Source: Idiomarina loihiensis L2TR
Lineage (GTDB): Bacteria > Pseudomonadota > Gammaproteobacteria > Enterobacterales > Alteromonadaceae
Direction: 5' to 3'
Assembly (NCBI RefSeq): GCF_000008465.1
Contig: NC_006512.1
Location: 2,790,001-2,822,000, forward strand
DNA: 32,000 nucleotides
In this document: positions 4,297-26,669 of the stretch, piece by piece
How the letters are laid out: each line of letters opens with the position of its first letter
How positions within the stretch are numbered: position 1 is the stretch's first letter
The notes under the pieces: generated by a model
Databases searched by the model: none
Told to the model about the DNA's origin: nothing
Seen by the model: the letters and a program-made list of their open reading frames with translations, nothing else
Made by a program: the position numbers and the translations under genes

Positions 4297-5208
4297 CTAT
4301 TCGCTGCAGCTCAGAACATTTTCCCCATCCAGGTTAAAACCCTCTTTCCATAAAGCGGATATTCCAACGTCAAGGAAGTAAGAGCAGGCATTACTTTCAA
4401 ACTCCTGCTGGCTGATTTCACCCTCTGAGCCGTCTTCATAATATTCCTGCACAAACACCGCTTTGTTATTTTTCAGGAAAGTGTCCTCGTAACTCACGCA
4501 TTCATTTCCGTAGGCATAACACTGTTCGTTTACGGCAAAATCAAAGTCATTAACCAGTTCATTCAGTTGGTCTACATCATTCTTTAAACCAATGCTTAAC
4601 CCTCGCGAGTGTGCGGCATTGGCTAACCATTTATTGTAATTTAGCTGATCATCGTAAGTGATAATGCCTTTTGTCTCGTCAGTGTTTATATAGCCGTCGA
4701 CATTGTCGGGTTCAACCGCATCACAACCTGCAGATTGAGCTAAGTCCAGACGCGCTTCCATAATGGGTTTGATGTTTTCATTCAGGACAGCCTCATTGTT
4801 TATGTCCAGCCATACTTCACCCGGCCAGTCCGCCATTTCACCGTTGGCAATAACCGCGTCTTCCGAAAATTCAGTCGCATCGGGCCGCCAGTCTTCACGG
4901 GTTCCGGCACTAAAATAACAAATAACCCGTTTACCGTTGTCCTTTAATGAACTGATAATACTGTCGTCACCACCCTCGGCACCTTCAAATAAGTCGATAT
5001 CGAACGCCTCGGCGTCCTTGCTTATATCCAGGTTATCGTAGTTCTCCAGCTGCCAATGCCAGCTTGTTCCTGGCTTGGGTTGCCATATGCCGGATTCTTG
5101 GTGATCCGAGCTTTCTGAAGACGAATCAGAGTTACAAGCGGTTAGTTGCGAGCAGGCTAAAACCAATAAACTTGCAGCAAAACAGTTTCGGTAAAACATT
5201 GGTGTCAT
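4297..5208 (-). CDS. Glycoside hydrolase family 114-like (endo-alpha-1,4-polygalactosaminidase-like) lipoprotein
   Basis: Lipobox LTAC after a hydrophobic N-terminus. Motifs WHWQL, DIDLF, VICYFSAGTREDWRPD, WLDI and CDAVEPDNVDGY match my recollection of the GH114 TIM-barrel family. Confidence 0.7.
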   Translation of the reverse strand: MTPMFYRNCFAASLLVLACSQLTACNSDSSSESSDHQESGIWQPKPGTSWHWQLENYDNLDISKDAEAFDIDLFEGAEGGDDSIISSLKDNGKRVICYFSAGTREDWRPDATEFSEDAVIANGEMADWPGEVWLDINNEAVLNENIKPIMEARLDLAQSAGCDAVEPDNVDGYINTDETKGIITYDDQLNYNKWLANAAHSRGLSIGLKNDVDQLNELVNDFDFAVNEQCYAYGNECVSYEDTFLKNNKAVFVQEYYEDGSEGEISQQEFESNACSYFLDVGISALWKEGFNLDGENVLSCSE

Positions 5209-7455: not shown

Positions 7456-7480
7456 TTAACAACTTTAATGCACGCCGACG
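7456..7480 (-). repeat. Solitary relic of a Tn7-family terminal TnsB-site (same family as 10261-10435)
   Basis: ttaacaactttaatgcacgccgacg differs at 3 of 25 positions from the terminal 25 bp of the 64-bp modules (ttaagaactttaatgtacgccgaca). The terminal ACA is mutated to ACG. Confidence 0.55.
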
Positions 7481-7946
7481 TTTCCACTCATCTTTCTGAA
7501 TGGTTTTCTAACACCAAACGTAATAGCCCGGGATGCACAGAGCACCCTTAAGTCATAAAGTGATTCGAGCAACTCAAGGTCATGAGCCCTGTCAATGGCC
7601 TTACACAGCTCAATAATATTGAGTCCGGGGACATTATTGGCAGGATCAAACAAGTTATTTTCCCGGGCGATATCTCGCGTATCATCACGAATTAGAGGAA
7701 ATTGTTCACGTATGTCAGTAACGGAAGGGTTGTTATCAAGCAGAAGGAAAGCAGCAAATTCGAGATCGGAAAGTAAGTGATGGATGCGCTTGGTGCGGTG
7801 AGAGTAACCTGTAGGGATCGCCCTAAAGATAGAACTTCATCGACCCGCACCCAAGGGCTGTAGTCCGCGCCGGAACCAGATCCGCGTCCTTCCTTTATTC
7901 TTTTCGCAATCTGCCCCTCGCCCAGAGAGTATTTTGATTTTGCCAT
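7465..7946 (-). pseudogene. tnsA: tnsA pseudogene (frameshifted and 3'-truncated)
   Basis: The N-terminal frame reads MAKSKYSLGEGQIAKRIKEGRGSGSGADYSPWVRVDEVLSLGRS. This parallels intact TnsA at 24957 (WIKEGRGSGQNEEYRPWLTVRDLPSLGR). After a 1-nt indel near 7810-7820, a second frame reads GYSHRTKRIHHLLSDLEFAAFLLLDNNPSVTDIREQFPL, parallel to FGHKSRRTHHLLSDLELSVFLLLEWLPDVTQVREQFPL. Similarity is lost near 7610, and the frame runs into the end relic. Confidence 0.8.
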
Positions 7947-8134: not shown

Positions 8135-8941
8135 ATGAAACCTGCACGAAAATTTATAGTACCTGTGTCGCTATCTTTATTAGTAATAGGCCTGTTAATG
8201 ACAAAACAGGTTTATTCCGTTGAACTCGTTCAGATGTGTAAAGTGACAACTATCGGAGTATCTGGAAGTTCGACTTCTTGGACGAGTCAAACCTGCTGGT
8301 GGGAGGATTTAGGAGGCGGTGGCGGGGGCGGCCCCGGCGGAGGAAGTGGTGATCCTTTCCCCAGCGGCGGTGGTGGCTCTGGGGGATCACCTACCTATTC
8401 ACATAATGACTTCGACACAGATGGCAATAATGAGAGCGACTGCTGGAAAAGTTTAGTAGCGAATGGTGATCATTATCTAGATGAGGGTGATGACTTTGGC
8501 ATGAGAGTTTTGAGCGGTAAGAATGATATGCATGACGGCATTGATATTCAAGCACCATACGGTTCAATTATACGCTCTCCAGCTTACGGTAAAGTCACAG
8601 GAGTAGAAAAAACAGATTCTGGTCTTAACGGAGCATATGTACGCATGCGCTATATGAAAAATCAAACCTTATATGAAGCCGTTATGATACATATGGTTGA
8701 AGACTCGCCTACTGTAGGCATAGGGGATATAGTTTATCCTGGCACCCCATTGGGGATGGTCAACAGCACAGGTTCTTCTACAGGTGACCACCTACACTTC
8801 CAATTATATGTTATTGATACTCCTATCTCTCCAGATGGCATTAATCCTTGGACTGGCAAGCCATATAATTATGCAGCATTAGGCCCTAAAACCCCTATTG
8901 ACCCGGTACCCAGAATGGGTGACTTATCTTGTGAAATTTAG
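8135..8941 (+). CDS. Secreted M23 (lysostaphin-like) metallopeptidase with Gly-rich linker
   Basis: Signal peptide ...TKQVYS-VE. Linker GGGGGGPGGGSGDPFPSGGGGSGGSP. M23 motifs HDGIDI (HxxxD) and STGDHLHFQL (HxH). Strong RBS AGAGGA. Confidence 0.85.
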   Translation: MKPARKFIVPVSLSLLVIGLLMTKQVYSVELVQMCKVTTIGVSGSSTSWTSQTCWWEDLGGGGGGGPGGGSGDPFPSGGGGSGGSPTYSHNDFDTDGNNESDCWKSLVANGDHYLDEGDDFGMRVLSGKNDMHDGIDIQAPYGSIIRSPAYGKVTGVEKTDSGLNGAYVRMRYMKNQTLYEAVMIHMVEDSPTVGIGDIVYPGTPLGMVNSTGSSTGDHLHFQLYVIDTPISPDGINPWTGKPYNYAALGPKTPIDPVPRMGDLSCEI

Positions 8942-8966
8942 TGAATAAAAGACATGGAAGGACATT

Positions 8967-10061
8967 ATGAATATTTTAAAAAGAATCTGTTTAGTAAGTA
9001 CTTTTACTTTAGCTATCAGTGTTCATGCGGAAGAACTACATTTCACCCAAGAAAGTAGTACCTTTGTTGAAATACTGAGTTCGCAATACATCGCGACTAT
9101 TAAAGGGGACTCTTCTGACAAAGTTGATTTTTATACTAAAAATCAAGATTTGGTCAATTCAGTCTCATTAGATTGGAAAGCCAACCATGCATGGAGACTT
9201 TCAAAGGATTATTTTCTGGTCGCATCATTAAAAAGAGCACCTGATCCAGAAGCCTATAATCAAGCCGTTTTATTTAAAGGCGATAAAATTGTTGAGCATT
9301 TTAGAGATGTTAAAAATATCCATTCAATACCAGGAGGAGAAAAGTTTGCCATTGAAACAGCCACGGGCAACGATGAAAAGAAAACTCACTTAAAGATATT
9401 TGACGTCAAAAAAGGGTTTGTTAAAGAAGGAAGAATTCCACGGACAACTCGCTTCAGTACGGTGTCTATTTCTCCTGACCTTAATAGCGTTGCAATTTCC
9501 CCTTTCTCCACAGATTCAAGTTCTGTCTTGAATATAACGGTCTACTCTGGTGATAATTTTTCGTCAGAGACAGATTATAACTTCGACAATACTCGAATAT
9601 ATCAAACAATCCCCCTTGCAAATGGGTTAGTGGCAATTAACGTGAATCGCCGTATTGCAGCAATGTCTGAAGCTAAGGCTGAATGGACCATTCCAAATAA
9701 ACAAATTTTTGTTACCGTTGATGTTTTAAAGCAAACCTCAGATCCGAACTACATAATCGCGGAAGAAAATACCGGTAGGGTCGTGGTTATCGGACTAGAC
9801 GGTTCCATCGCCTTTGACTCAAAAGATCAAGAGGATGATACCTTCGAAAAGATAGAGCAAAACGGAGCTTATATTGATGTTGTCAATGACCAGTTAATCA
9901 TTAATGACAGTAATCGTGGGGAGGCGCTAATCATACCGCTTAAAAAACCAAAGCAAGTTAAGCATATTCGTGAAGTAAGCGACATACTAGCTATCGACGT
10001 AGCAAGTGGATACATCGCTTTTAAGAAAAAGGGTAAATTGAAAATAAAGAAGATTAATTAA
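8967..10061 (+). CDS. Secreted hypothetical protein co-transcribed with the M23 peptidase
   Basis: Starts 25 nt after the M23 stop, with RBS GGAAGG. Signal peptide LAISVHA-EE. No recognisable domain. Confidence 0.6.
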   Translation: MNILKRICLVSTFTLAISVHAEELHFTQESSTFVEILSSQYIATIKGDSSDKVDFYTKNQDLVNSVSLDWKANHAWRLSKDYFLVASLKRAPDPEAYNQAVLFKGDKIVEHFRDVKNIHSIPGGEKFAIETATGNDEKKTHLKIFDVKKGFVKEGRIPRTTRFSTVSISPDLNSVAISPFSTDSSSVLNITVYSGDNFSSETDYNFDNTRIYQTIPLANGLVAINVNRRIAAMSEAKAEWTIPNKQIFVTVDVLKQTSDPNYIIAEENTGRVVVIGLDGSIAFDSKDQEDDTFEKIEQNGAYIDVVNDQLIINDSNRGEALIIPLKKPKQVKHIREVSDILAIDVASGYIAFKKKGKLKIKKIN

Positions 10062-10104: not shown

Positions 10105-10260
10105 TGATGTATTTTTAATATCGTAAATTTATAGTTTTTTTAATAATCTTATACTATTTTTCAAAATATCTTTCCTCTTAGCACTTAGAATCGCTCCTAT
10201 TGATAAGAACAAAATTACTCTTAGAGGTTGCGCGAACAACCTTATAGCCAAATCTATTTT

Positions 10261-10324
10261 TAACAACTTTAATGTCTCATTTAAGACCTTTAATGTTTGT
10301 TAAGAACTTTAATGTACGCCGACA
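10261..10324 (-). repeat. Tn7-family right-end module, copy 1 (three TnsB-type sites plus terminus)
   Basis: The reverse complement reads TGTCGGCG-TACATTAAAGTTCTTAA-caaaCATTAAAGGTCTTAA-atgagaCATTAAAGTTGTTA. The CTTTAATG cores lie at 10267, 10288 and 10307, i.e. 19-21 bp apart. It ends in ...GACA at 10324. Confidence 0.7.
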
Positions 10325-10371
10325 GCTATATACTCAACAGGCATTATTTTCCACCCTTAAAATAGTATTTT

Positions 10372-10435
10372 TAACAACTTTAATGTCTCATTTAAGATCT
10401 TTAATGTTTATTAAGAACTTTAATGTACGCCGACA
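10372..10435 (-). repeat. Tn7-family right-end module, copy 2
   Basis: 62 of 64 positions are identical to 10261-10324, offset by 111 bp. The terminal ACA at 10433-10435 abuts the A-run that precedes the intact element. Confidence 0.7.
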
Positions 10436-10439
10436 AAAA

Positions 10440-10589
10440 TGTGGTGTGGTAATAAAGCTCCATACTATACTCGGCTAAGTTATTGATTTATTGAATCACA
10501 TTCGCAGACCTGAATAATAAACAATCATACTAATAAATCGATTAGCCTTTTCTCTTGACTAAAATTTAAGAATAAAGTGTCATACCTAC
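10440..10589 (+). repeat. Left end of the Tn7-like element with three spaced TnsB-type sites
   Basis: Sites are GGTAATAAAGCTCCATACTA (10448-10467), TGAATAATAAACAATCATACTA (10511-10532) and AAGAATAAAGTGTCATACCTA (10568-10588). Their dispersed spacing resembles Tn7-L. Confidence 0.8.
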
Positions 10590-10683
10590 TGGCCTCTACA
10601 ATCACAGACTAAAAGGCTTGATAATACGATGCTTTATATCAGTATAGCTTGAGGCTGAGAGACCATGTCTTAAGAGGTTATGA

Positions 10684-10995
10684 ATGAAAAGCTTATCTTG
10701 CCCTGCCGCTCTATTCTTCCATGGCTCTATCGCTTGGCTAATCCGCTATCTTCACTCAAGGGCCGATGCGCTTTTTTATATCGTGTTAACACTAATCACT
10801 TCACTTGTTGTTCACTTTGCTACTTATAAAGGTGTATTTGTAAGATATTGGCCAGAACATCTCAAAGACGATGCAATATTGTCTAGACTTTTTACGGTAC
10901 CGCTTCTTGCAACCGCCAATATTGCAGTAGCGGCGATTTCTCTTTTCATTGCATCCTTTATTCATAACCCCATGGGGGAGCATTTAAAAAAATAG
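10684..10995 (+). CDS. Small hydrophobic hypothetical protein (2-3 TM helices)
   Basis: ORF only. Hydrophobic segments are present. No clear RBS and no homology recognised. Confidence 0.3.
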   Translation: MKSLSCPAALFFHGSIAWLIRYLHSRADALFYIVLTLITSLVVHFATYKGVFVRYWPEHLKDDAILSRLFTVPLLATANIAVAAISLFIASFIHNPMGEHLKK

Positions 10996-11303
10996 AAGAT
11001 ACTATTTATAAAAATCAATTAAGCACTCAGAACGATCTTGAAAACCTCAGATTGCATATCCCTGCGTCAAAAGAGGTTACCGTAGTATCAGATTTTTTAT
11101 TTTGGTTGAAAAGTCAATTTTTCTGAAACTCTTACTTTTAGTGTAATAGAGGCTTCTTTGACGTCAATCGTTTTATTTTATTTATCGAATATATTCTTTT
11201 TTTGATAATCAAACTAATTAAAACTATAGTTAATGGCTAGCTAATATGGCTTTCTATTGAACAAAAAAAGTATCAATTCGAGTTAAACCTATAGTTTAAT
11301 CTA

Positions 11304-11609
11304 TTACCAAAGTTCTCTTTCTGCAGTTTCTATAAAACTTTCTATTACGTCAAACTCGGCATTAGTAAAAGCTATTTTTGCTCCCCCATGTGTCAAGGTC
11401 ACACCGGAGTCCGTAGAATAAAAACCATAATTAATATTATTTTTATGATTATCATTTCGATCATAATTTTTAATATAATTATTAGCAATCTCAGGATCGA
11501 TCGGAACGGACCAGCCGCCTGAAGATACGATCAAAAGACCTTCTGAATCAGCTTTAAGGAATACTTTACCTTCATCTCTGTCAAGCTTAATCGTATTCAT
11601 GAAATACAC
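11304..11609 (-). CDS. Hypothetical protein, last gene of the cargo operon
   Basis: 101 aa. It starts 32 nt downstream of the preceding gene on the same strand. No domain recognised. Confidence 0.5.
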   Translation of the reverse strand: MYFMNTIKLDRDEGKVFLKADSEGLLIVSSGGWSVPIDPEIANNYIKNYDRNDNHKNNINYGFYSTDSGVTLTHGGAKIAFTNAEFDVIESFIETAERELW

Positions 11610-11641
11610 CTTTTAAAATGATAAGTCTAAATAGATATAAA

Positions 11642-12370
11642 TTACTTCTTAAAACAATACCAATTATGACTACAAAGTTCCGAATTATGACTCATAAACA
11701 AATGTTTACTATAGTCATCACTCTCTGTCCCCGAGTCTGGCTTGAACCATTTTTGATGGCATTGGCTAATTAAATCGCTAAAGATAGAAACATGGATCCC
11801 TTCATCGTGGTCAACCAAGTGGTCTGCTATAATCATCAAAATTGTAGAATAAAAGTCTAACTGGCTAGTTGGAATTCTTACTGAGCCAAACCCTCGGTTT
11901 TTACTCTTTTCAAGACTTACGTTCAATTTATCGTGTATGTCATGAACCAATACAGAGTTGTCCTGTTGAGCATGAAATACAGGATGTGCCGGACTAACTT
12001 CCTTATCAAAATCGTAATGAAAACCTATAGGATCTTTAAGATTTAGTTTCTCACTTGGCTTGTTAGGTCGGCAATACAGTACATCCGTTTTGTATTTTGT
12101 AAAATAAATATCTTTACCCTTCTTAATTGCGTGCATATGGCCTTTTACATATATATTTATTTTACTCTTACGATCTGACTTGCCCGAGTCTGATACACTT
12201 TCAAATTTAGCTAAATCACATATATCACATTTAAAAATACCATCATCAATCTCTTCAATAGACCAAGGAGGTATATGCACGAAGGACCCTATATCTAACT
12301 TAGAACACATAGTTAAGATACAATTCGTAAAATGACTATGGTTCTTATCAAGTAGCTTTTGAAATGACAT
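11642..12370 (-). CDS. Hypothetical His/Asp/Cys-rich protein, fourth gene of the cargo operon
   Basis: 242 aa, starting 8 nt after the upstream stop. Motifs are CDICD, KGHMHAIKKG, HPVFHAQQD, VHDIHDK and ADHLVDHDEGIH. These are compatible with metal binding, but no family could be assigned. Confidence 0.55.
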   Translation of the reverse strand: MSFQKLLDKNHSHFTNCILTMCSKLDIGSFVHIPPWSIEEIDDGIFKCDICDLAKFESVSDSGKSDRKSKINIYVKGHMHAIKKGKDIYFTKYKTDVLYCRPNKPSEKLNLKDPIGFHYDFDKEVSPAHPVFHAQQDNSVLVHDIHDKLNVSLEKSKNRGFGSVRIPTSQLDFYSTILMIIADHLVDHDEGIHVSIFSDLISQCHQKWFKPDSGTESDDYSKHLFMSHNSELCSHNWYCFKK

Positions 12371-12378
12371 GTAAGTTA

Positions 12379-13545
12379 CTAATTCTTAGATTCTAAGTAT
12401 GGATGATATAGTTCATACGCTTCTGTAGCAATACGGCTCAAATCAGCACCTCTAGGCATCCAATCCAACGCACCTATAGAGTGTTTTTTACAAACAGGAG
12501 CTTCTTTAACCAAACAAAAATATCCCGCTGACTCTCCACACTCGAGACATGCAGATTGCTTGCATTCGATACCTTTCTTAAGAAGAAGTTGATAGCCTGA
12601 ATCTACCTCTTCATCAATTAAAATATCATCTAAGTCGAATCGCCACCAAAATTCGTATTTTGTTTTCTGAGAGAATGGACCAGTGTATAAAGCTGAGTTA
12701 AATTGTTGCTTATTTTCTATGAAATCATCGTAATTAAGATCCAAATATGACGCAGCAGCTTCAGACTTCAAAATGACACCAGGAAATTTCAATACAGAAT
12801 TATATAGCCAGAATCCTATTAAATAGGCTAACCCTGTTTTAAATTTTAATATAACGGAATCTTCATCAGAATTTTCATTATCTATAGCTTCAAGAAGCTC
12901 AACATAGTCACCGTATAAGTTAAAAGACCTCGCATATCCACTAAGAATGGGTTCCATATCGTCTTTATCCAAAATTTCTGTGGCTATGTCTACAATATCT
13001 TTTCTAGTATTATCTTCATTAACGAAGTCTTGCTTTTCTAGCTTATTAATTCTTTCTCTAAGTTCTTCAAATCCCAGGTAGATTGAATGAATACGTACAA
13101 TATCCTCAGGGATTAATTCTATATCCTCGTTCCCCGTCCCTTTAAGGTCTAATTTCGCTGAATATAAATGAGCACGTTGAACGAGCTCTTTTATTCTTTG
13201 ACGCGGAGTTTGCTTGGACATAACGCGAGAATATCTGCAATGAGGCACCCCAGCAAGCTTACAGGCATCGCTCACTACAGACTCTGATAGCTTTGAGTTA
13301 TAGCCGCTCAAATCGTGATCGACTACAACTAATTTTATATCAGGGTTATCTGTTAAGTACCGCTCGAATTGCTTCTCAGTTGAATTGTTAGCTCCAACTT
13401 TTTCAGATGGCTTCAACAAAGTTTCGCAAACAGAATCGTCGACTTCGACAACTTCTACACTATCTTGTTGTAATTGACGCCGTAAATTACTTACTACTTC
13501 GGATCGTTTCTTATTATCGTCGTCAATAACTAAAATTTTATCCAT
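12379..13545 (-). CDS. Receiver (REC)-like domain protein with unassigned C-terminal region and terminal Cys cluster
   Basis: The N-terminus KILVIDDDNKKR ... IKLVVVDHDLSG has the acidic pocket and a candidate acceptor Asp (about D76) of CheY-like receivers. The C-terminal roughly 250 aa are unassigned. The protein ends with CKQSACLECGESAGYFCLVKEAPVCKKH (zinc-ribbon-like). Confidence 0.6.
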   Translation of the reverse strand: MDKILVIDDDNKKRSEVVSNLRRQLQQDSVEVVEVDDSVCETLLKPSEKVGANNSTEKQFERYLTDNPDIKLVVVDHDLSGYNSKLSESVVSDACKLAGVPHCRYSRVMSKQTPRQRIKELVQRAHLYSAKLDLKGTGNEDIELIPEDIVRIHSIYLGFEELRERINKLEKQDFVNEDNTRKDIVDIATEILDKDDMEPILSGYARSFNLYGDYVELLEAIDNENSDEDSVILKFKTGLAYLIGFWLYNSVLKFPGVILKSEAAASYLDLNYDDFIENKQQFNSALYTGPFSQKTKYEFWWRFDLDDILIDEEVDSGYQLLLKKGIECKQSACLECGESAGYFCLVKEAPVCKKHSIGALDWMPRGADLSRIATEAYELYHPYLESKN

Positions 13546-13551
13546 AAAAAC

Positions 13552-15789
13552 CTACTTAACAGGAAGTTCAATTTCAAAGGTAGTTGCAAACCCATTCTCA
13601 GGCGAGACCAACTCTATCCTGCCACCGAGCTTTTCGATTATTTGTTTTACTAAGGGCAACCCCAATCCCATTCCACTACCTAATGGGTTATTTTCGTTAG
13701 AAGTGGTCGTATACAGTGGGTCCCATATGAGTCTTCTAGTTCCAGGAGGAATACCTGCACCATTATCACTCACTCGAATAAAGTGACTGTTTTTCCGATT
13801 CAGAGTCGAGATTTTTATGCATTTATTCTCTTTTGATTCAGATACAAGAGCCTTAAGGGCATTAGTATATAAATTGTGAATGATTCCTTTATAGACAGCC
13901 ACCGGCATTTTAGGCGCATACACATCTCGGTCTACATCTACCATATCTATATCAATATCGCGTTCTAACCTGAACTTAGAAAACGAATTAACGACATCCT
14001 GTATTTGAGGAAAAGCTCTAAAATAGACCTCATTGCTGAAATTGATCGACTCAATAAACGACTCAGTATACTCGGTATAAGCTAAAAAAGCAGACAACGA
14101 CTCATCAAGCTTTTGTGAGTGGCCAGATAATTCAGGATAGTTAGCTTCGAGAAATTTTACTCGATCTAGAGTTTCCTCTAAAAGATGAAGAGTGCTTTTG
14201 AATTCATGCGTCATAAAACCCGCAACCACTCCGAGTAACCCCATATTTACAAAATTTTCACGGGTCTTTCTTTCATGATCTATGAGCTTATCATAGTCAT
14301 TTCTCAAAGAGCTGTATTTACTTGTTAGTGCTTCCTTGTCCTCTTGGCTCAATGTCGACGTATTTTCGATTAGGTCAATTACCTCGTCTATCTCGTCTTG
14401 TGCCCTTTCATAATCTCTTTTTTTTCTTTCTTCCTCTTCATCCAGAGAATATTTTTTATCATGGTATGCGACTAGCTCTATGGAAAATCGGCATATATCA
14501 TTTAGCTGTTGAAACCCCTCATTTTCTACTAGGCCTTGCCTATCGGTACTAGGAGAAAGAGATTTAATATCGTCAGTTATACGAGCATTGCTAGCCTCAA
14601 TAAAAACCCCTCCAACTAACTGATGAGTTTCAGGTAAGGCAAGCATTGGGTTGAGTTTAGGACTCGTTCTTTGCTCAGTCGACATTTCATAGTGTTCTTT
14701 CATAAAGGGAGAACGCCAATGCCGTTCGCTGCGAGAACTATCCGCATTTAGACTTAACCAGTCATCATCAATCTCTCCGTAAGGAGGTACCTTAAAGCTT
14801 TTATCATATACAGCTACACTTGGTGAGTTTCTTATCCATGCTCTAGCCTTGTTCCCGTTAATAGTTCCATTTCGGAGCATACCTTTACGGGAAGGAAAAT
14901 AATTCACTTGTCCGTATATATCACAACCCATTAAATTCTTTATTGGAATTTTTACTTCATCACATAAACCTTTATCACGATGAAGAACCTTCATAAAAAG
15001 ATTATTTCCGTTGGTATAGAAGTAGGATCTAAATAGATAACTTTTGAGAACATCGTCCGCGATATTATCTACTTCAGACTTTCTTTTCTCGGTTTTGTCG
15101 CCAGGAACTATAAAATTTAAATTGAATTTATCGCTTTCTTCTGATGAAACTTCACGTTTAGATTTATAGGAATGCTTTAGCTTAAAGTCATAAGGTGCGT
15201 CAGACAAAAGTGCATCTATCGGCGATACCATTGATAAAGTGCTATCTTTGATTTGCTTAATTTTTTTGTAATCGAATTTGTGTCTGAGGTTTTTTATAAC
15301 TAAGGTAGTTCCCGCACTATCCTCAACTCGATTATAAAGTCGATAACTAATAATAAGCGAGTCGATCGAGGATTGACTATCTACTTTTTCCCAATTAAAT
15401 CTAGCAACTATTTTGCTTCTATCACCACATTTATTTTCATAGACCGTGATTAAAAGTAAAGTTTTTCCTAAAAATCTAGTCGCAAACCTTCCAATTCCCT
15501 TTGAGCCAGTAATTGTTCTACCAAACACTTTACTTGTAGGTGAGCCTGCTTTATTTCCGGTAGCAATTCGCATCCATTTATTCTTAAAGTCATCCAGACT
15601 CATTCCATGTCCGGTGTCTTTCACAACGATTCGGCTATCACTCCACTCAACATTACAGCTTGTTGCATCAGCATCGTATGAATTTTTAATCAATTCGGTC
15701 AACGCGACTTCAGAAGAGCTAACAAGCTGCTCTCCTAACTCACGGAGGATTGCACTTTCAACACTGAAACGAATTTCATCGCGATTCAT
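13552..15789 (-). CDS. Cytoplasmic fusion protein: N-terminal Hsp90/MORC-like GHKL ATPase module plus C-terminal histidine-kinase core (DHp H-box and HATPase_c)
   Basis: N-terminal Bergerat motifs: LTELIKNSYDADA (N-box), VKDTGHGMS (DxGxG) and GSKGIGRFA (GxxGxG). A central acidic coiled-coil follows. C-terminal motifs: H-box GFMTHEFKSTL, N-box IIHNLYTNALKAL, G1 VSDNGAGIP and G2 GSGMGLGLPLVKQIIE. No TM segments. The ATG directly abuts the MTase stop (TAAATG). Confidence 0.75.
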   Translation of the reverse strand: MNRDEIRFSVESAILRELGEQLVSSSEVALTELIKNSYDADATSCNVEWSDSRIVVKDTGHGMSLDDFKNKWMRIATGNKAGSPTSKVFGRTITGSKGIGRFATRFLGKTLLLITVYENKCGDRSKIVARFNWEKVDSQSSIDSLIISYRLYNRVEDSAGTTLVIKNLRHKFDYKKIKQIKDSTLSMVSPIDALLSDAPYDFKLKHSYKSKREVSSEESDKFNLNFIVPGDKTEKRKSEVDNIADDVLKSYLFRSYFYTNGNNLFMKVLHRDKGLCDEVKIPIKNLMGCDIYGQVNYFPSRKGMLRNGTINGNKARAWIRNSPSVAVYDKSFKVPPYGEIDDDWLSLNADSSRSERHWRSPFMKEHYEMSTEQRTSPKLNPMLALPETHQLVGGVFIEASNARITDDIKSLSPSTDRQGLVENEGFQQLNDICRFSIELVAYHDKKYSLDEEEERKKRDYERAQDEIDEVIDLIENTSTLSQEDKEALTSKYSSLRNDYDKLIDHERKTRENFVNMGLLGVVAGFMTHEFKSTLHLLEETLDRVKFLEANYPELSGHSQKLDESLSAFLAYTEYTESFIESINFSNEVYFRAFPQIQDVVNSFSKFRLERDIDIDMVDVDRDVYAPKMPVAVYKGIIHNLYTNALKALVSESKENKCIKISTLNRKNSHFIRVSDNGAGIPPGTRRLIWDPLYTTTSNENNPLGSGMGLGLPLVKQIIEKLGGRIELVSPENGFATTFEIELPVK

Positions 15790-17127
15790 TTAAGTCTGCC
15801 TTTTTAGCCAGTCGACTATCACGCTATTCATCTGGTTCACCTCTACCTTTTTTAGCTTATTCGAGTGACTTACTATCTGTCGCTCAAAGTCTACCGCCTT
15901 TAAATGATTAATCAAACTATCAATATCATCCTCAGCGACTTGATGAACTCCATGTACTGTACCTATAGCAATGGCACCAATCCTGTTAGTAAGAGTTCTT
16001 GGTCCAAACTTTGTAAATCCGGAGTTGTACAATATAGAAGGGGATGGATGAGGACTATATCTCCACCACGGCGATTGCTTCCGGCAAGTATAGGTATCTA
16101 TAAGCTCCTCAGGAACTGAATCAAAATAGCGTTGAAGATTTTTTGAAGGTGAAGAGGACGGAGAAACAAGCCAGCACTTCTGATCGCCCAAAACGTAATA
16201 TTTAAAAAAATTATTCTCATCTAAAGAGTCGATGTTAGGCGGCAAAGTCTTCATTTGGGTAATGCAGGGAAAGACATCAAATCCCACTTTCAAGCCAAAC
16301 TGCTTTCTTATTTTTTCTGTCAGACAGAAAACAGTCTGTGAACCCGGACTAAGGCCTCGTTGAGCAAAAATTTCTTTATCTCGTTTTGTATAAGAAAGAA
16401 GTCTCTCATCACTCCCTGTTACCGACTCAGCTTCCTTAATTTTTAAATCTTCCGATACTTTAAAAAACCTCCAACGGCATGAGCTCGTAGATTTATCAAT
16501 TATTGAAAGGCTTGCTGTTGTTAAAACCTTTGAATCAGTAAAGATATTTGACTCAAATCGATACACGTCAACTGACCAACCTTTCTTCTCTATTGCGTTA
16601 CGTAAAAAGGCTGCAGAAGGTCGTGATACCCATTCGTACGGAACTACTTGAGCACAAAGTCCGTCATCTGCAGTACTCAAGAGTGCTTGGCACATAAAAT
16701 AAACAAATCCATTAGCTCGCTTATCGAACTTTTCGTCCAGCGCACGACCAAGTATGCCCGATAACTCTAGCTTCCACTTCGGAGACAAATCGTGGTGTCG
16801 AACATAAGGAGGGTTACCGATAGCCAAATCGAAATCGCCCCCAAAATCCTCACCAAAAAAAGCACATTGGTTCAAAATCCTTTTGCGATTTTCGTTTTGA
16901 AAATCGCCAAGCCGTTTACTATCTACTTCGATCCCGAGATAACTATCATATACGTCTGATCTCGAAAAATTTCCCGAGCCGGCACCTAAGTCCAAAACTG
17001 AACGGATATCCCTTCGATACTCTTTCACCAATTTCCAAACAAATTCGACAATTTTATCTGGCGTATCAATTTGACACCTTGATAAATAGTTATCCATAAA
17101 TTGGTTACTTTCAGGATTTACAGTCAT
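15790..17127 (-). CDS. DNA methyltransferase, NPPY type (N6-adenine/N4-cytosine, gamma-class motif order; Eco57I/TaqI-like)
   Basis: SAM-binding motif I VLDLGAGSGNF precedes catalytic motif IV AIGNPPYVRHH. The C-terminal roughly 250 aa are a plausible target-recognition region. Confidence 0.8.
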   Translation of the reverse strand: MTVNPESNQFMDNYLSRCQIDTPDKIVEFVWKLVKEYRRDIRSVLDLGAGSGNFSRSDVYDSYLGIEVDSKRLGDFQNENRKRILNQCAFFGEDFGGDFDLAIGNPPYVRHHDLSPKWKLELSGILGRALDEKFDKRANGFVYFMCQALLSTADDGLCAQVVPYEWVSRPSAAFLRNAIEKKGWSVDVYRFESNIFTDSKVLTTASLSIIDKSTSSCRWRFFKVSEDLKIKEAESVTGSDERLLSYTKRDKEIFAQRGLSPGSQTVFCLTEKIRKQFGLKVGFDVFPCITQMKTLPPNIDSLDENNFFKYYVLGDQKCWLVSPSSSPSKNLQRYFDSVPEELIDTYTCRKQSPWWRYSPHPSPSILYNSGFTKFGPRTLTNRIGAIAIGTVHGVHQVAEDDIDSLINHLKAVDFERQIVSHSNKLKKVEVNQMNSVIVDWLKRQT

Positions 17128-17289
17128 CTTTGCACTTTGCCCAGTATTTACATAGATATAATGTAACCTTTTGAGTCGACGTCCACAATCCCCATAGGTA
17201 CTATTTACCCGAAGAAATTAGCTTTTCTTAATGTACGAGAGAGAAGTTAATCGATATAGCTTTTCTGTTCACTAGTTATTCATTACCAC

Positions 17290-18888
17290 TCATACTCTGG
17301 CTAACAAATGGCGGCAAACATTATTAGCCCACCTCCTTACATTTTCTTGCCGTATTGAACCCGCTTTTTCAGACGCTTGATGTACTATAAAAAAATGATT
17401 GTCTTTACCAAACCCACTATCAAAATAATCCTTTGGCCAACTCAACGACTTTTTGAGTAGCTTTATCTCAATCTCGGATAGGTGTTCAACTACTGCTTTC
17501 GCAGAAGAAGCCATAACCACCTTTGTTGATAATGACTTTGCAGCATCCGAGGTATCAACCTCCATAAGGTAGAATTGGTGACCACTGACAGTCACCCTGG
17601 CCAACATCCAACACCTTGGCGCTAAGTCATCCCGCATTAGGTGCATTTTGCATCGACCAACAGATGGCAGCTTTCTAAAGGCTAGACGCTCAACTCTGCA
17701 GTTATGATTAGTAACCAAGTAGTTCAGCATTTTTGAAAAGCTTTCAAACTTACTATCGTACAAGTGCATATCATCAGTATTTTCGTCTAAACCATCCCAT
17801 TCAGCACTAGGCAACTCACCCATAGGAGATTGTTCTTCTGTACTAACTAGACTGGATGCTTCGCTTCCGTCAGAATTGTCGCTGGAACCAACCTTTTTCC
17901 TTTTTCTTGCCGTTTTATGAGTATTTACCGCCTTTGCAAATTCAACTTTCGTTTTGACTCCATCAATTTGCACCGGATCATTTTCACCACTGGAGTCTTG
18001 ATCCTCATCTACTTCATGATTAGGCGGTCGGTAATCTCCACCACGGGCACCCCTTCCACCACTCAGCTCAGGCACATAGAATTTGGGACTAAAGAACTCA
18101 ACGTCACTAGGCACACCTGTCGGAATACCTGTTAATTCAGTGATTTCATAAACCAACAAGGTATTAGTTTCTGTATCTAAATTTCCGCGAACTTTTAAAT
18201 TAACTCCTTGAAGGGGAGGAGGCTCAAACTCAAAGTTCCAAATCCTGTATGAGCCTCGGTTAAAGCCAGACTCTAGCTGCGCCTTACTGATACTTTCGTA
18301 GGAGAGCCGAGCATCGTTATCTAAGAGAAGCCAAGCTAAGTAACGCCGGTAACCGGGATCTGAAAATACGTTATCGGGGCAGGTGCTATTTGGGAGCACA
18401 GTAATGACGGCATGCTCTGAATTAGTCGCATCATGCTCTACTGAAAACTCATTCTGCAGTATTCCGTGCTCCATACACGCACGAGAGAAGTAGGCATTAT
18501 GAAAAAATAACGCCCTGGCTAATTCAAACTGCGGTAAATACACTGTCATGCCATCAGGTAAGGTTTTAACGAAACAACGAGACTTCCGCTCCTTTGGCAA
18601 ATCTCGCTCTTTCGCAGGGCAGTCTTCTAGATTGCTTACTTCCCATTTTTGTAAGTTATCGACGGTGAACTCTATCTCAGAACCTTGTTTCCGAAATGGT
18701 CGCGTGGGATTAATAACATTTTTTCTGACTAGAATTGGGGCTTGAGACAATAGAACACTATCGTTGCCTCTCGTTTTTCTTGGGTAAATACTTAGATTAA
18801 TCCCCCATTGGCTTCCATCAGTCCGTTTGAACACTGATCCAATACCATTTATCCAGGTGTTATCTTCAAACCCACCGAGCCTATCCAT
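17290..18888 (-). CDS. tnsE: TnsE-like target selector (conjugal/lagging-strand pathway)
   Basis: 532 aa, directly after tnsD with a 3-nt gap. Tn7 TnsE is about 538 aa. Segments PQFELARALFFHNAYFSRAC, NFEFEPPPLQGVNLKVRG and LMEVDTSDAAKSLSTKVV parallel my recollection of Tn7 TnsE (PQLELARSLFLINSYFCRSC, FSFDPPPMQGWKLHVKG, LLEVDASDGVKMLSTKVL). Confidence 0.75.
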   Translation of the reverse strand: MDRLGGFEDNTWINGIGSVFKRTDGSQWGINLSIYPRKTRGNDSVLLSQAPILVRKNVINPTRPFRKQGSEIEFTVDNLQKWEVSNLEDCPAKERDLPKERKSRCFVKTLPDGMTVYLPQFELARALFFHNAYFSRACMEHGILQNEFSVEHDATNSEHAVITVLPNSTCPDNVFSDPGYRRYLAWLLLDNDARLSYESISKAQLESGFNRGSYRIWNFEFEPPPLQGVNLKVRGNLDTETNTLLVYEITELTGIPTGVPSDVEFFSPKFYVPELSGGRGARGGDYRPPNHEVDEDQDSSGENDPVQIDGVKTKVEFAKAVNTHKTARKRKKVGSSDNSDGSEASSLVSTEEQSPMGELPSAEWDGLDENTDDMHLYDSKFESFSKMLNYLVTNHNCRVERLAFRKLPSVGRCKMHLMRDDLAPRCWMLARVTVSGHQFYLMEVDTSDAAKSLSTKVVMASSAKAVVEHLSEIEIKLLKKSLSWPKDYFDSGFGKDNHFFIVHQASEKAGSIRQENVRRWANNVCRHLLARV

Positions 18889-18891
18889 CGC

Positions 18892-20400
18892 TTACAACCC
18901 CATTACCTCAGAAAGAAACTCTCTTGCTTCTTCCGTTAAGCGCTCTTCACTAAGCCCAGCGCTACGCAAAACATCCCATCGTTTAAGGTGTTCACTTTGT
19001 TTATGCCGCTCAATCGCCACGTGTGTTATGCGGCGGATCTGATAGTCCGCAATCGTTTCCGTGTATCTACTTAGAAACAGCTTACACAGGGGAAGCTTAT
19101 ATAAGTTTTTTTCCACCTTTGACTTATGATCCAACTGGTTAAAGTACCAGTTTCTTGATCTCCTAGGGCTCTCCAGCTTTATTTCAAAGCAGTCACGAAT
19201 GGATATCAGAGCCTTTAACAAGCCGCGATCAAATGAGCTCCAATTCACTCGTGTAGACAGTGCTGACCTTTTACACATCAACTTTGCATTAAGCGACAAT
19301 AACCAAGCTCTATCGTGGCGATACAGCCAAGTATAGTCTCCTCCGGCACCTTCAAGGCGAGCCCTTTTCGTCCCTTTATTCTTTATCGCTTTAAGCCAAA
19401 CTCTGCGCCGTTTAAGTATTGTTAACTTATCAGCCTGGAGCATAAGGCTGTGAGTAACTGACTTTTCCGGCTCATATGATTTGACGTCTTTAATGACGTC
19501 ATTTAACGCAATCGTATCTCCGAGAAATGCATGTAATACAACAAGGTGCTCAAGGTAACTGAAGCTTTTACGATGTTTTCTAAATAGGCTTCTTAGCCAG
19601 CATGTATCAGAGTCTATTAGTTTCAGGCCAACACTTTTCAACCAGCTTTCTGACCAATAGTTAGTGACTTTCCGAGCGACTTCTTCATGCTCTATATTGC
19701 AGCCTCTATTGAATCCAAAATCACAAGCAAGAGCTTTATAAAACAACCCCCATTGGATAACTGTTGGTACCGACTGCTCAGGCAGGTTCAAAATCGATGT
19801 AATGCTTGAATTCAAGACATTGCTCTGCCTATTCGTTTTGCTTTGCGGCTTACAAGAACATAAGTTTAGGTCTGCGGCCGTATACACATGGCGCTTATAA
19901 GAAGTCCGTCTTACTGCTGTTTCCTTTAGCTCCCCATGAATAGGACAGTAATCCATACCCGCAATTTGCCAGTCTCGTCGCCAGAAGCATTCGCCAAATT
20001 GATTCCATTGCTGTTCAATGCATTTAGGGCAATATCGTAAGTAGTACGGTTGAGTAATTCGGGATGCGGCGAATCCTGACATGACATGTACCGAATGCAC
20101 TTTATCGGCTAAAAGCTGCTTTTTCAGTTCTGTTCTTCGTGATTCGCCAATAAACAGAGCGTACAGAGGAAACAATGTATGTTTATAAAGCAAACTCTCA
20201 GGTTGAACGTTCAGCTGGCCTGGATATAGTTCCGCTACCTGCTCTAAATGACCGTGTAAGTCAGACGTAGCAATGATTGTGTTCTTCCCAAACACTTCGT
20301 GTAAGAGCTCTTTAGGTGAGGTTAAACCGCTGTGGATACCATAACGGGCTATCGTGCTATAGATAAGCTCATCGGGATAAGGAAGCGGAAAACCGAGCAT
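18892..20400 (-). CDS. tnsD: TnsD/TniQ-family target selector (attTn7/glmS pathway)
   Basis: N-terminal TniQ motif PYPDELIYSTIARYG. CCCH zinc finger CPKC...CPIHG. Abuts the tnsC stop (TAGATG). The element sits at the glmS attachment site. Confidence 0.85.
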   Translation of the reverse strand: MLGFPLPYPDELIYSTIARYGIHSGLTSPKELLHEVFGKNTIIATSDLHGHLEQVAELYPGQLNVQPESLLYKHTLFPLYALFIGESRRTELKKQLLADKVHSVHVMSGFAASRITQPYYLRYCPKCIEQQWNQFGECFWRRDWQIAGMDYCPIHGELKETAVRRTSYKRHVYTAADLNLCSCKPQSKTNRQSNVLNSSITSILNLPEQSVPTVIQWGLFYKALACDFGFNRGCNIEHEEVARKVTNYWSESWLKSVGLKLIDSDTCWLRSLFRKHRKSFSYLEHLVVLHAFLGDTIALNDVIKDVKSYEPEKSVTHSLMLQADKLTILKRRRVWLKAIKNKGTKRARLEGAGGDYTWLYRHDRAWLLSLNAKLMCKRSALSTRVNWSSFDRGLLKALISIRDCFEIKLESPRRSRNWYFNQLDHKSKVEKNLYKLPLCKLFLSRYTETIADYQIRRITHVAIERHKQSEHLKRWDVLRSAGLSEERLTEEAREFLSEVMGL

Positions 20401-22068
20401 CTATCCCACCTGTTTTAACCTAGCTTCCATATCGAAAATGTCACGGCCTACTGCAAGCTCACCATAAAACTGACTTTTCCGTTGTGAGTATTTAAAGCGT
20501 AAATCATCGGATGGAAGGGTGTGCCATTCTTTTGACTTTATTGTTTTTGCCTTCGGTTTGGACTTTTGCACTGCCGTAGGCTCTTGCTCCGTTTTATACC
20601 ACTCGAGAACGATACGAGTTAACTCCGGCAGCTCAAGCTCAGAATGTTCACTGAAAACTTTCTCAACCAGCGCCGGCAGCAAGTCAGATTCGCAGCCCAT
20701 CGCCTGGAGCATATTATAAAGCCTTAAAGCTTTTTCATTATTGCCAAACGACACCTCTTTTTTCTTCTCTTCCTGCTCCTGTGCAATTAGGTTTCTGAGT
20801 TCAAGTAAGCGCTTATCTATTGAGGGTAAGTGTAAGTCCGAGTATTTCACTATCAAGTCAGCATCATTGCGTCTCAAGGCTTCAAGCATTGGGTGAACAG
20901 GAATAAGTTCTTGTTCATAAACTTTTCGAAGTAAGTCTGCGGTAATACGTTCAAGGCCCGTCGCTATTGCCCGCATTTGAGCCAATACAAAAATCTTCAC
21001 GACGATATCTAAAACGCCTTGTGATAGGTCATACCAACAGTCTCGAACTTCGTCACTGAGCGTTTCATCTCGTCGCTCTAGCCACTGGTACTTCCATAGT
21101 TTATTAGTAAAGGCCTCCCATTCGCTCAGCTTTGGCTCTCCCGTTTTAGGGTGGTATCGACGAGTGCCTCGTTGCATTGGTTCCCAAAACAATGAACCAA
21201 ATCCAGCGCTTCTTCTCCCAGCCTGCAGCTCCATTTCAAAGATCGGCCTGGCTTTTGGTGTTCCAACTAATACAACCGGAACACCGATGACGTTTACCAA
21301 CGCAACAAAGAACTCAAGCATAGCTTCTTTACTTAAAGTACCTTTCAACCCTAGTCTTTGAATTTCATCGATAACAAGAACACCAATCGCTTTTTGAGTA
21401 GCTACTTGCCCCATCAAAGCCAGGAGAACTTCAGGCCCATGACGTTTTCGAACATACTTTTTCTCATAGCCTGTCTGAAGCGTCCGGTCGACTTCACGGA
21501 AAAAGTTCAAACATAAGCTTTTAAGAGAACCATCACTCGGGCATTCAATGCGCAGGTAGGGGAGTTGAATAAAATTATAGTCCGGATGGAAAATCACCTC
21601 AGGATAAGTAGCGAGTATACGGTTAACTGTGGTGCTTTTCCCTGACCCTGAACAGCCTATCAGGGACAAACATTTAGCCGTTGAATTCGACTGTGAAAAA
21701 CGAAAGTCACTCGTCGCCCCCTCCATTATGCGCTGATATCCCTCCTGCATTTTTTTGTTAAGGGAGCCATCTGCAGGGTTACGACCAACGTAACCCGCCC
21801 GAATCATGATTGACAACTTCTCCTCTAACTGTAAATGCATTGATAGAGGTTGAAAGAAATCATCCAGCAAAGACGCTATGTTATGGGCTCTTTCTTGAGG
21901 CTCTGCAAATCGATTTTCTTGGTCGAACCGGACTTTTCCGGTGAGGCTATTTCGAAGTGTTTTGCGATCCATTATCGGAGGCAGAGCTTCAATCAGCGGG
22001 TTGCCCTGATAGCGCTCAGGTTTAAGAGGCCTGTAAACCGCTGAAACGTAATTATTGGGTAGCGGCAT
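20401..22068 (-). CDS. tnsC: TnsC AAA+ ATPase regulator
   Basis: Walker A GCSGSGKST. Walker B VLVIDEIQ. 1-nt overlap with the tnsB stop (TAATG). Confidence 0.9.
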   Translation of the reverse strand: MPLPNNYVSAVYRPLKPERYQGNPLIEALPPIMDRKTLRNSLTGKVRFDQENRFAEPQERAHNIASLLDDFFQPLSMHLQLEEKLSIMIRAGYVGRNPADGSLNKKMQEGYQRIMEGATSDFRFSQSNSTAKCLSLIGCSGSGKSTTVNRILATYPEVIFHPDYNFIQLPYLRIECPSDGSLKSLCLNFFREVDRTLQTGYEKKYVRKRHGPEVLLALMGQVATQKAIGVLVIDEIQRLGLKGTLSKEAMLEFFVALVNVIGVPVVLVGTPKARPIFEMELQAGRRSAGFGSLFWEPMQRGTRRYHPKTGEPKLSEWEAFTNKLWKYQWLERRDETLSDEVRDCWYDLSQGVLDIVVKIFVLAQMRAIATGLERITADLLRKVYEQELIPVHPMLEALRRNDADLIVKYSDLHLPSIDKRLLELRNLIAQEQEEKKKEVSFGNNEKALRLYNMLQAMGCESDLLPALVEKVFSEHSELELPELTRIVLEWYKTEQEPTAVQKSKPKAKTIKSKEWHTLPSDDLRFKYSQRKSQFYGELAVGRDIFDMEARLKQVG

Positions 22069-24957: not shown

Positions 24958-24967
24958 TACGAACCCC

Positions 24968-24997
24968 CTGACTTAGACATTAAGTCATACTAGTCAG
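24968..24997 (-). promoter_or_regulatory. GACT/AGTC inverted-repeat cluster in the tnsA 5' leader, abutting the SD
   Basis: The plus strand reads ctgacttag-acat-taagtca-tac-tagtcag. TGACTTA appears once forward (24969) and twice inverted (24981, 24991). On the mRNA, the hairpin ends at ...AAGTCAGGGGG, and GGGGG serves as the Shine-Dalgarno 6 nt before the ATG. Confidence 0.4.
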
Positions 24998-25236
24998 TGA
25001 GTTAATGGTATGCAACTTTACGTTTTAACCTGCTATCAAATCGCTACACAAAAATAGCTTTATTAAGTTTATGAACATGAAAAAACGGATGTGTATTTAT
25101 TCGAAAATCAAAATAAAACATTGACTTCTGGATGTTTATACAGTAGTGTGGCTCTGATTGGTTTTTTCCGATCAAGGTAGGCTTTTACGTAATTTTAGTA
25201 ACAGCTTTGAACTATTACTAATAGAAGGAAGAAAAA

Positions 25237-25281: not shown

Positions 25282-25291
25282 GGAGGTAAAT

Positions 25292-26601: not shown

Positions 26602-26669
26602 GAGTATCAAACTTTATTCCTAAGTATGATTCTTTATTACTAGGTATGAATCTTTATTACTCCACCACA
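26602..26669 (-). repeat. Right end of the Tn7-like element: three abutting 20-bp TnsB-type sites plus an 8-bp terminus
   Basis: Plus-strand sites are gagtatcaaactttattcct (26602-26621), aagtatgattctttattact (26622-26641) and aggtatgaatctttattact (26642-26661), followed by ccaccaca (26662-26669). The contiguous arrangement resembles Tn7-R. Confidence 0.85.

Follow-up and report, generated by a model that had tools for sequence, protein, structure and literature searches.

The window analyzed in this study is the whole 32,000-nucleotide (nt) stretch of Idiomarina loihiensis L2TR at positions 2,790,001 to 2,822,000 of contig NC_006512.1, and all coordinates below are positions within it. It contains a minus-strand operon of four genes encoding, in this order, a DNA methylase, a double-GHKL histidine kinase of 745 amino acids (aa), a receiver-like protein of 388 aa, and an unannotated protein of 242 aa (P242), with gaps of 0, 6, and 8 nt between neighbors. 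An earlier note on this DNA, made from the sequence alone, had singled out the kinase, which is considered here together with its partner genes and the Tn7-like transposon that carries them.

Domain layout and conservation of the kinase

The kinase gene (13552..15789, minus strand) is an uninterrupted open reading frame (ORF), and its product was assigned to the AbrB/HEF_HK type by Pfam, alignment, AlphaFold2, Foldseek, and BLASTP. It is one soluble polypeptide with a MORC/Hsp90-type ATPase in front and a complete histidine-kinase core behind. The Pfam family HATPase_c_3 (PF13589) matched aa 25-158 with an E value of 3.4e-30 (105 bits vs. a cut-off of 25), within an N-terminal GHKL ATPase domain spanning aa 25-170 (15280..15717, minus strand), which upholds the reading of the N-terminal motifs as a GHKL fold. 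HATPase_c (PF02518) matched aa 636-744 (E 3.4e-22), within a catalytic (CA) GHKL domain of aa 592-745 (13555..14016, minus strand) that PDB histidine kinases match by sequence as well as by fold. The proposal of two GHKL modules in one polypeptide, put forward in the earlier note, was thus borne out by Pfam, by invariant residues, by AlphaFold2, and by Foldseek. All the motifs quoted there are present in the 745-aa frame, namely ELIKNSYDADA starting at aa 32, DTGHGM at aa 58, and GSKGIGRF at aa 95 in the N-terminal part, MTHEFKSTL at aa 526, HNLYTNALKAL at aa 638, DNGAGIP at aa 675, and GSGMGLGLP at aa 704 in the C-terminal part, and an acidic stretch (DEEEERKK...) beginning at aa 450. The stated lack of transmembrane helices and of PAS, GAF, and HAMP motifs also agrees with our results, as the highest 19-residue Kyte-Doolittle window of the kinase was 1.03, with no membrane segment, and no PAS, GAF, or HAMP domain was found by Pfam.

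In an alignment of 40 full-length homologues (35-53% identity), the Bergerat-fold ATPase motifs E32xxxN36xxD39, D58xGxG62, and G95xKGxGR101 were invariant (Glu32, Asn36, Asp39, Asp58, Gly60, Gly62, Gly95, Lys97, Gly98, Gly100, and Arg101), with Glu32 and Asn36 encoded at 15694-15696 and 15682-15684, respectively. The same was true of the CA boxes, which comprise the N box (Asn639/Asn643), the G1 box (Asp675xGxG, with Gly677 and Gly679), and the G2 box (G704xGxGLGL, with Gly706, Gly708, and Gly710). Judged by its motifs, the N-terminal GHKL ATPase is catalytically intact and fills the position usually held by a sensor domain. The suggestion that a GHKL module had taken the place of the sensor is therefore supported by the invariance of its ATPase residues in the 40 homologues.

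Between the two modules lies a conserved middle region (aa ~175-420; 14530..15267, minus strand), a putative transducer domain according to the alignment, predicted local distance difference test (pLDDT), and Foldseek. It may adopt the S5 fold of MORC/paraMORC transducer domains, is mostly modeled with high pLDDT as a mixed beta/alpha structure, and carries the near-invariant motifs FPxRxG (298-303), PYG...DDDWL (336-345), RxWR (356-359), and DRxG...N (416-423). In the AlphaFold2 model of the kinase (pLDDT 79.9), it is followed by helices 424-476, 482-548, and 552-583 and then by an alpha/beta domain. The first of these is a predicted long acidic connecting helix of 53 residues (14362..14520, minus strand; 17 acidic and 8 basic residues) leading from the ATPase module to a DHp helical hairpin at aa 482-583 (14041..14346, minus strand). 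His528 (codon 14206-14208; checked, as were those above) lies on the 67-residue helix 482-548, paired with helix 552-583, and is followed by Glu529-Phe530, forming an "HEF" motif in a T-H-E-F context.

The earlier note had also read an H-box at this site, and this claim stood in part. Pfam HisKA was not detected in the kinase, and HEF_HK (PF19191) at aa 519-564 remained below threshold (12.7 bits, E 0.18, vs. a gathering cut-off of 24.1); among the 120 closest kinase homologues, a few carry PF19191. Since these Pfam models gave no significant match, the DHp and H-box call is based on His528-Glu529, which is invariant across the 40 homologues, and on the fold match, in which the last ~237 residues superpose on the full DHp and CA core of HK853 (Foldseek E 4e-12, template-modeling score 0.66-0.68). 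The kinase resembles the HK853/RR468 pair in its DHp histidine followed by an acidic residue, in its N, G1, and G2 boxes, and in this fold match over DHp and CA; in contrast, it has no membrane, PAS, HAMP, or GAF input and bears a second ATPase of the same superfamily instead. In Foldseek, the first ~500 residues, comprising the N-terminal GHKL domain and the middle region, aligned to Hsp90/HtpG and to the ATPase module of SMCHD1. By sequence, the N-terminal domain was matched by the N-terminus of the BbrUII/HgiDII restriction enzymes (E 5.9e-22), and PADLOC gave partial matches for the N-terminus alone, to restriction-enzyme and MzaB models.

Two published groups of proteins bear directly on this architecture. 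In Ambrosia, a phage defense system validated in Pseudomonas aeruginosa (van den Berg et al. 2025, bioRxiv 10.1101/2025.09.30.679545), the genes encode AbrR (XRE), AbrA (N6 methylase, 448 aa), AbrB (747 aa, HATPase_c_3 and HATPase_c), AbrC (receiver and winged helix-turn-helix, 209 aa), and AbrD (HNH, 213 aa). All five genes are required, the substitutions AbrB N40A and AbrC D60A each abolish defense, the operon is induced on infection, and phage methylated by AbrA is still sensitive; the system was reported from Gammaproteobacteria, mainly Pseudomonadales (10.1101/2025.09.30.679545). In a BLASTP comparison limited to the published N-terminal 400 residues of AbrB (Table S1), the AbrB N-terminus matched kinase aa 8-347 with an E value of 1.2e-18 (25% identity over 378 columns), and Asn40 of AbrB aligned with Asn36 of the kinase. 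The two proteins are also of almost equal length (747 vs. 745 aa), share the HATPase_c_3 and HATPase_c pair, and have genes that in both cases are flanked by an N6-adenine methylase gene on one side and a receiver gene on the other.

The second group is the HEF_HK kinases, in which HATPase_c_3+HEF_HK+HATPase_c was the predominant form (174 of 222 sequences), 91.6% were linked to a receiver-like gene (Response_reg_2), and the neighborhoods showed an upstream methylase and enrichment of restriction-modification (R-M) genes (Bellieny-Rabelo et al. 2021, PMC8011034). These authors proposed that HEF_HK kinases descended from paraMORC ATPases (PMC8011034). The kinase studied here is similar in its HATPase_c_3, H-E-F DHp, and HATPase_c arrangement, in its solubility, and in having a receiver-like gene downstream and a methylase gene upstream. 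However, its DHp falls under the PF19191 threshold, its receiver partner lacks PF19192 and has a C-terminal domain unrelated to that of PF19192-like partners, and its methylase is of the N6-adenine type, whereas the C5 type predominates in HEF_HK systems. The novelty of the architecture that the earlier note had implied does not hold, given that it was published in 2021 (PMC8011034) and validated in a defense system in 2025 (10.1101/2025.09.30.679545).

The methylase, the receiver-like protein, and P242

The methylase gene (15790..17127, minus strand) encodes an N6-adenine-type DNA methyltransferase (MTase) of the Eco57I type with 445 aa, as identified by Pfam, PADLOC, and motifs, and its stop codon directly abuts the start codon of the kinase gene. 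Motif I (DLGAGSG) is located at aa 46 and motif IV (NPPY) at aa 105; the protein matched Pfam Eco57I (E 9.8e-11) and PADLOC type II MTase models (E down to 1e-18), and its homologues carry PF07669 and PF22837. Compared with AbrA, it is of similar size and occupies the same position, whereas the best BLAST E value between them was 0.58 and the Pfam families differ (Eco57I vs. MmeI_Mtase/N6_Mtase). The nearest gene upstream of the methylase gene is tnsE, 162 bp away. Scans of 10400-17400 for regulatory signals were uninformative, with fewer promoter-like sites than in shuffled sequences and terminator-like sites no more common than in shuffles. Downstream of the operon, a 101-aa ORF (P101; 11304..11609, minus strand) lacks conservation in related loci and probably lies outside the system.

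The receiver-like partner (12379..13545, minus strand) was characterized by comparison of its family profile with the PDB, by alignment, and by AlphaFold2. It consists of a divergent receiver (REC) domain at aa 1-135 and a 240-aa C-terminal domain of no known family. Although the protein itself had no Pfam match, a PDB search with the profile of its family returned receiver domains only (best E 1.6e-4), and 7 of 47 family members reached Pfam Response_reg. None of the 47 matched Response_reg_2 (PF19192), even at E 10. Asp9 and Asp76 (the latter encoded at 13318-13320) were invariant in the 47 sequences, and in the AlphaFold2 model (pLDDT 88.7; predicted template-modeling score 0.89) a (beta-alpha)5-type unit covers aa 2-134. 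Sequence and model together point to a divergent receiver with Asp9 in the acidic pocket and Asp76 as the putative phosphoryl acceptor.

The C-terminal part of this protein comprises a helical bundle, a small beta/alpha unit, a Cys cluster, a WW(R/K) motif, and the invariant Tyr287. Foldseek returned nothing for it from the PDB or BFVD, it matched no family in Pfam, and the model suggests that aa 147-388 may be a new domain; the corresponding segment, 12379-13107, is predicted with very high confidence. From motif and topology, aa 256-311 were first read as an excisionase/MerR-type winged helix (HTH_17). This reading was unsupported, as ten C-terminal segments gave nothing against Pfam at E 10 and Foldseek gave nothing in the PDB and BFVD, and Pfam detected no helix-turn-helix (HTH) in the C-terminal 144 residues (aa 245-388). 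Its difference from AbrC is clear in length (388 aa) and in relationship, since its receiver part alone is related to the short-REC family (hhalign, 94.6%).

The last gene of the operon encodes P242 (11642..12370, minus strand), a member of an unannotated family that was recognized by alignments and synteny and is a candidate effector. Its conserved pattern is His118-x-Asp120, His129-Pro130-x-x-His133-x-Gln135, Arg165-x-Pro167, Asp172, and Asp183, in which His129, Pro130, and His133 are invariant in the family and conservation is at least 90% at His118, Asp120, Gln135, Arg165, Pro167, Asp172, and Asp183. This residue pattern suggests a metal-dependent active site. The family comprises 181 stand-alone relatives of ~240 aa among 1.84 billion representatives, and no match to P242 was found in the PDB (with profiles of 30 and 102 sequences), Pfam, NCBIfam, PHROGs, or PADLOC. 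Two other assignments were considered and abandoned: a divergent HNH/AbrD relative was ruled out by BLAST, with no match to AbrD, and by hhalign, P242 also having no HNH match, and a 2-oxoglutarate-oxygenase-like HxD...H site was dropped because residue spacing and order did not fit.

Related loci and the Tn7-like carrier

A word-indexed search returned 805 matches to the kinase family, the best 120 of which all carried PF13589 and PF02518 at full length. At least 567 stretches with kinase relatives were confirmed (one genome per species), distributed over many bacterial phyla; among archaea, they occur in haloarchaea, Thermoplasmatales, Nitrosopumilus, and methanogens. In the phage genome collection, only two partial, N-terminal kinase matches were found, and the kinase is therefore not a common phage gene. 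To describe the neighborhoods, we called ORFs in the 80 best kinase loci and classified them by iterated hidden Markov models. A homologue of the 388-aa receiver type lies immediately downstream of the kinase in 41 of the 80 loci, and a P242-like gene follows the receiver gene in 36 of these 41 (7 of the 36 by hhalign alone, probability 97%). The methylase, the receiver protein, and P242 occur together in 33 of the 80 loci. In other loci, the kinase is accompanied by an alternative partner of ~360-400 aa (20/80) or by a short partner of ~205 aa (11/80). The three partner families share the receiver part alone (hhalign, probability about 95%), indicating that one sensor kinase is combined with interchangeable outputs.

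Two of the short-partner loci, L065 and L077, carry AbrD-like genes, and the short partner of L077 weakly matches AbrC (E 5e-4); the short-partner group can thus be equated with an Ambrosia-like group. In seven others (L031, L042, L050, L060, L062, L067, and L072), the ~205-aa receiver is followed by a family of ~200-220 aa that clusters apart from AbrD by BLAST and has no relation to P242 by hhalign, and this family may be another unannotated candidate effector. Classical restriction nucleases are carried by distant kinase loci.

The complete four-gene cassette recurs on different mobile elements. It was found in a second Tn7-like element in Rheinheimera mangrovi, in a Vibrio parahaemolyticus island with an integrase and a PemK/MazE toxin-antitoxin pair, in an Acinetobacter indicus prophage (L084, MRUT01000039.1, 6014-12425), and on a 607-kb Paraburkholderia plasmid (L088, NZ_AP023177.1, 4337-9969). 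The four proteins co-diverge, with identities of 44-49%, 42-50%, 33-41%, and 30-36% to those of three named genomes. In the prophage, the cassette lies directly beside genes for a Peptidase_S24 (CI-like) repressor and Cro. The site beside prophage repressor genes is a typical position of prophage-borne defense genes. On the plasmid, an 81-aa HTH gene overlaps the start of the methylase gene, giving a five-gene layout as in Ambrosia. A conserved AbrR-like XRE regulator was nevertheless rejected, because none of the 80 loci contains a homologue of this HTH gene.

In I. loihiensis, the Tn7-like element spans 10440-26669 (16.2 kb) and is inserted in attTn7 after glmS. The transposition genes, all on the minus strand, were identified by Pfam as tnsA (24130-24957, TnsA N/C), tnsB (22068-24146, Mu-transpos_C), tnsC (20401-22068, AAA_22/Tn7_TnsC_Int), tnsD (18892-20400, TnsD/TniQ), and tnsE (17290-18888, TnsE_C). 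The ends of the element were found using the glmS-proximal repeats. The left end (10440..10530, plus strand) consists of the terminal TGTGGTGTGGTAATAAAGC and a second repeat at 10513 resembling a TnsB site, and the right end (26604..26669, minus strand) of the terminal TGTGGTGGAGTAATAAAGA and three repeats spaced by 20 bp; both ends bear additional 18-mer repeats. The distance between the right end and the glmS (26695-28527) stop codon is 25 bp, and AAAAA flanks the element at either side. Since the tns genes, both ends, and the glmS-adjacent site were located, the cassette is cargo of this element. It is essentially the entire cargo, the remaining cargo ORFs being two small unconserved ones, and the GC content of the cargo is 0.33-0.39 vs. 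0.43-0.51 in the flanking chromosome. The association of the kinase with a methylase and with mobile elements, which the earlier note had set as a test of its idea, therefore holds in the operon, in the 80 loci, and in Tn7-like elements, a prophage, and a plasmid.

This context effectively refutes the view that the protein is an ordinary housekeeping cytoplasmic sensor kinase lying beside a methylase by chance. Such a view agrees with public annotation, in which the protein is named simply "sensor histidine kinase", whereas the patchy spread over bacterial phyla and archaea, the fixed linkage to methylase and receiver genes, the residence in Tn7-like elements, a prophage, and plasmids, and the lower GC content of the cargo all argue against it. 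It is also improbable, if less decidedly so, that the cassette is a selfish or epigenetic module in which the two-component pair controls the methylase (phasevarion-like or by addiction) rather than serving immunity, and which would stabilize the carrier transposon, prophage, or plasmid or reprogram host expression. In favor of this view, the cassette always resides on mobile elements, in many cases with toxin-antitoxin genes and integrases nearby; the 2021 authors proposed a regulatory control over R-M genes, and a Pectobacterium homologue was induced in plant infection and competition (PMC8011034). However, the AbrB-containing system protects strongly against phage, P242 with its His/Asp site looks enzymatic rather than regulatory, and the variable nuclease neighbors fit defense better.

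Several further features of the element and its surroundings were observed. A 103-aa, strongly hydrophobic ORF (10684-10995, plus strand; Kyte-Doolittle maximum 2.13) is located in the cargo near the left end; it had no database match and is absent from the related loci examined. Between the right end and tnsA, a protein of 140 aa belonging to HTH_37 (XRE clan) is encoded at 25876-26298 (minus strand), ~9 kb from the cassette, and is the sole HTH gene of the element. Beside it, within 25292-26298, is a divergent 175-aa ORF with no Pfam or PHROGs match.

To the left of the element, 10255-10435 contains two 70-nt direct repeats that are 97% identical and 111 nt apart. Each has three copies of the 15-nt motif TTAA[CG]A[ACT]CTTTAATG, a seventh copy of which is located at 7456-7470; the motif has 12 matches in the window vs. 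2.5 expected. The repeat block stops 5 bp before the left end and may represent the relic of a transposon end or a site of recombination. Since inverted copies are missing from the opposite end, the 15-nt repeats at 10260-10425 were rejected as Tn7 end sites. In addition, the non-coding stretches 7736-7793 and 7882-7904 are 74-87% identical to parts of tnsA (24746-24803 and 24893-24915) and are probably left over from a previous Tn7-like element that had used the same attachment site. In the flanking chromosome (4297-5208 and 8135-10061) are genes for a GH114 glycoside hydrolase and for an M23 peptidase, both unrelated to the cassette. The M23 peptidase gene is followed by that of a protein of 364 aa that matched no family and whose N-terminus is hydrophobic and resembles a signal peptide.

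Proposed mechanism and biological meaning

The reading that we favor, with a probability of about 0.62, is that the kinase is the sensor of an Ambrosia-like, R-M-associated phosphorelay defense cassette carried by a Tn7-like transposon. The steps suggested below are drawn from MutL/MORC/Hsp90 clamps, histidine-kinase signaling helices, and the Ambrosia mutants. An infection-linked cue, which could be a phage product, DNA of foreign origin, or altered nucleotide pools, would act on the N-terminal ATPase module, in which ATP binding and hydrolysis may open or close an N-terminal dimer in the manner of MutL, MORC, and Hsp90. This change could reach the DHp through the connecting helices (424-476), leading to autophosphorylation of His528 by the C-terminal GHKL domain, and the phosphoryl group would then pass from His528 to Asp76 of the receiver protein. 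The receiver protein's C-terminal domain would trigger the response, either by induction of the operon, as reported for Ambrosia, or by direct action on P242, which would be a likely metal-dependent effector in place of the Ambrosia HNH nuclease. The methylase may serve in self-marking or in making a substrate. DNA or dimerization as the input of the kinase, as the earlier note had imagined it, is a reasonable possibility, although a simple "unmethylated DNA" input is disfavored because methylation by AbrA leaves phage unprotected in Ambrosia.

A comparable anti-phage logic is reportedly found in Detocs, in which a histidine-kinase-like sensor is said to phosphorylate receiver-domain proteins and thereby release an effector. 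Detocs is likewise said to have TPR-type N-terminal sensing, a buffer receiver, and a receiver-nucleosidase fusion, with no methylase or GHKL sensor. The likeness to the present cassette lies in the kinase-receiver arrangement as described.

A number of results weigh against the favored reading. Among the cassette proteins, the kinase alone is demonstrably homologous to an Ambrosia component, whereas BLAST showed no significant similarity of AbrA, AbrC, or AbrD to the cassette partners, and the hhalign probability between P242 and the AbrD-like HNH cluster was 0.1%. An XRE regulator, AbrR, heads the Ambrosia operon and is absent from the cassette, and no XRE-type regulator was seen flanking the operon. 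The Thr/Lys pair of the REC domain is not clearly conserved in the alignments, and none of the kinase, receiver protein, and P242 matched a complete PADLOC system; PADLOC 2.0 has no model for the Ambrosia system. Moreover, the source for Ambrosia is a preprint. The distribution also differs, the cassette type being present in many phyla and archaea.

It is also possible, though less likely than not, that the methylase-kinase-receiver-P242 cassette is a distinct, widespread defense type with a new effector, sharing only the sensor kinase with Ambrosia. If true, the output would run through two families without known relatives, P242 and the 240-aa domain at the C-terminus of the receiver protein, and the system could hide phosphorylation-controlled new effector chemistry and a MORC-type ATPase that directly senses foreign nucleic acid.

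An ATP-dependent R-M system as conceived by Iyer et al. (2008) seems unlikely, though not to the degree of the selfish module discussed above. In this case, the methylase would mark host DNA, the paraMORC-like module would clamp or loop unmodified sites, and the phosphorelay would license a nuclease (P242 or the receiver C-terminus) on unmodified DNA only. The paraMORC GHKL ATPases, which are linked to methylases and nucleases and are laterally mobile (Iyer, Abhiman & Aravind 2008, PMC2292703), provide a precedent. The kinase resembles them in its N-terminal GHKL domain with intact ATP motifs followed by a conserved domain and in its association with R-M genes, and the closest sequence models of its N-terminus are N-termini of the BbrUII/HgiDII family and other type II restriction enzymes. 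Linkage to a methylase is nearly constant, the genes follow one another closely (gaps of 0-8 nt), and distant loci encode the restriction nucleases mentioned above. In contrast, paraMORC proteins have nuclease, TIR, or other C-terminal extensions or helicase partners, and none was described with a histidine-kinase core, the mentions of receiver or two-component proteins in that paper being 0 (PMC2292703). Furthermore, in Ambrosia, the sole tested relative, phage grown on the methylase stayed sensitive and the operon is transcriptionally induced rather than constitutively armed, and profile and fold searches recognized no nuclease fold in the cassette.

What is new at this locus is the cassette variant only, with another methylase family, a novel output domain on the receiver protein, and P242 instead of an HNH protein. 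The double-GHKL kinase is among the few cases in which a clamp of the MutL/MORC/Hsp90 type is wired directly to a phosphorelay, and it is a test bed for how ATP-driven dimerization is turned into a kinase signal, a concept already in the literature. The locus further provides a clear case of a Tn7-like element in attTn7 whose main cargo is a defense-type cassette, and it adds a compact, transposon-borne four-gene variant with two uncharacterized families bearing invariant polar residues. Either the output domain of the receiver protein or P242 might reveal a new effector, and their functions would tell whether Ambrosia-type systems are a modular superfamily with interchangeable effectors.

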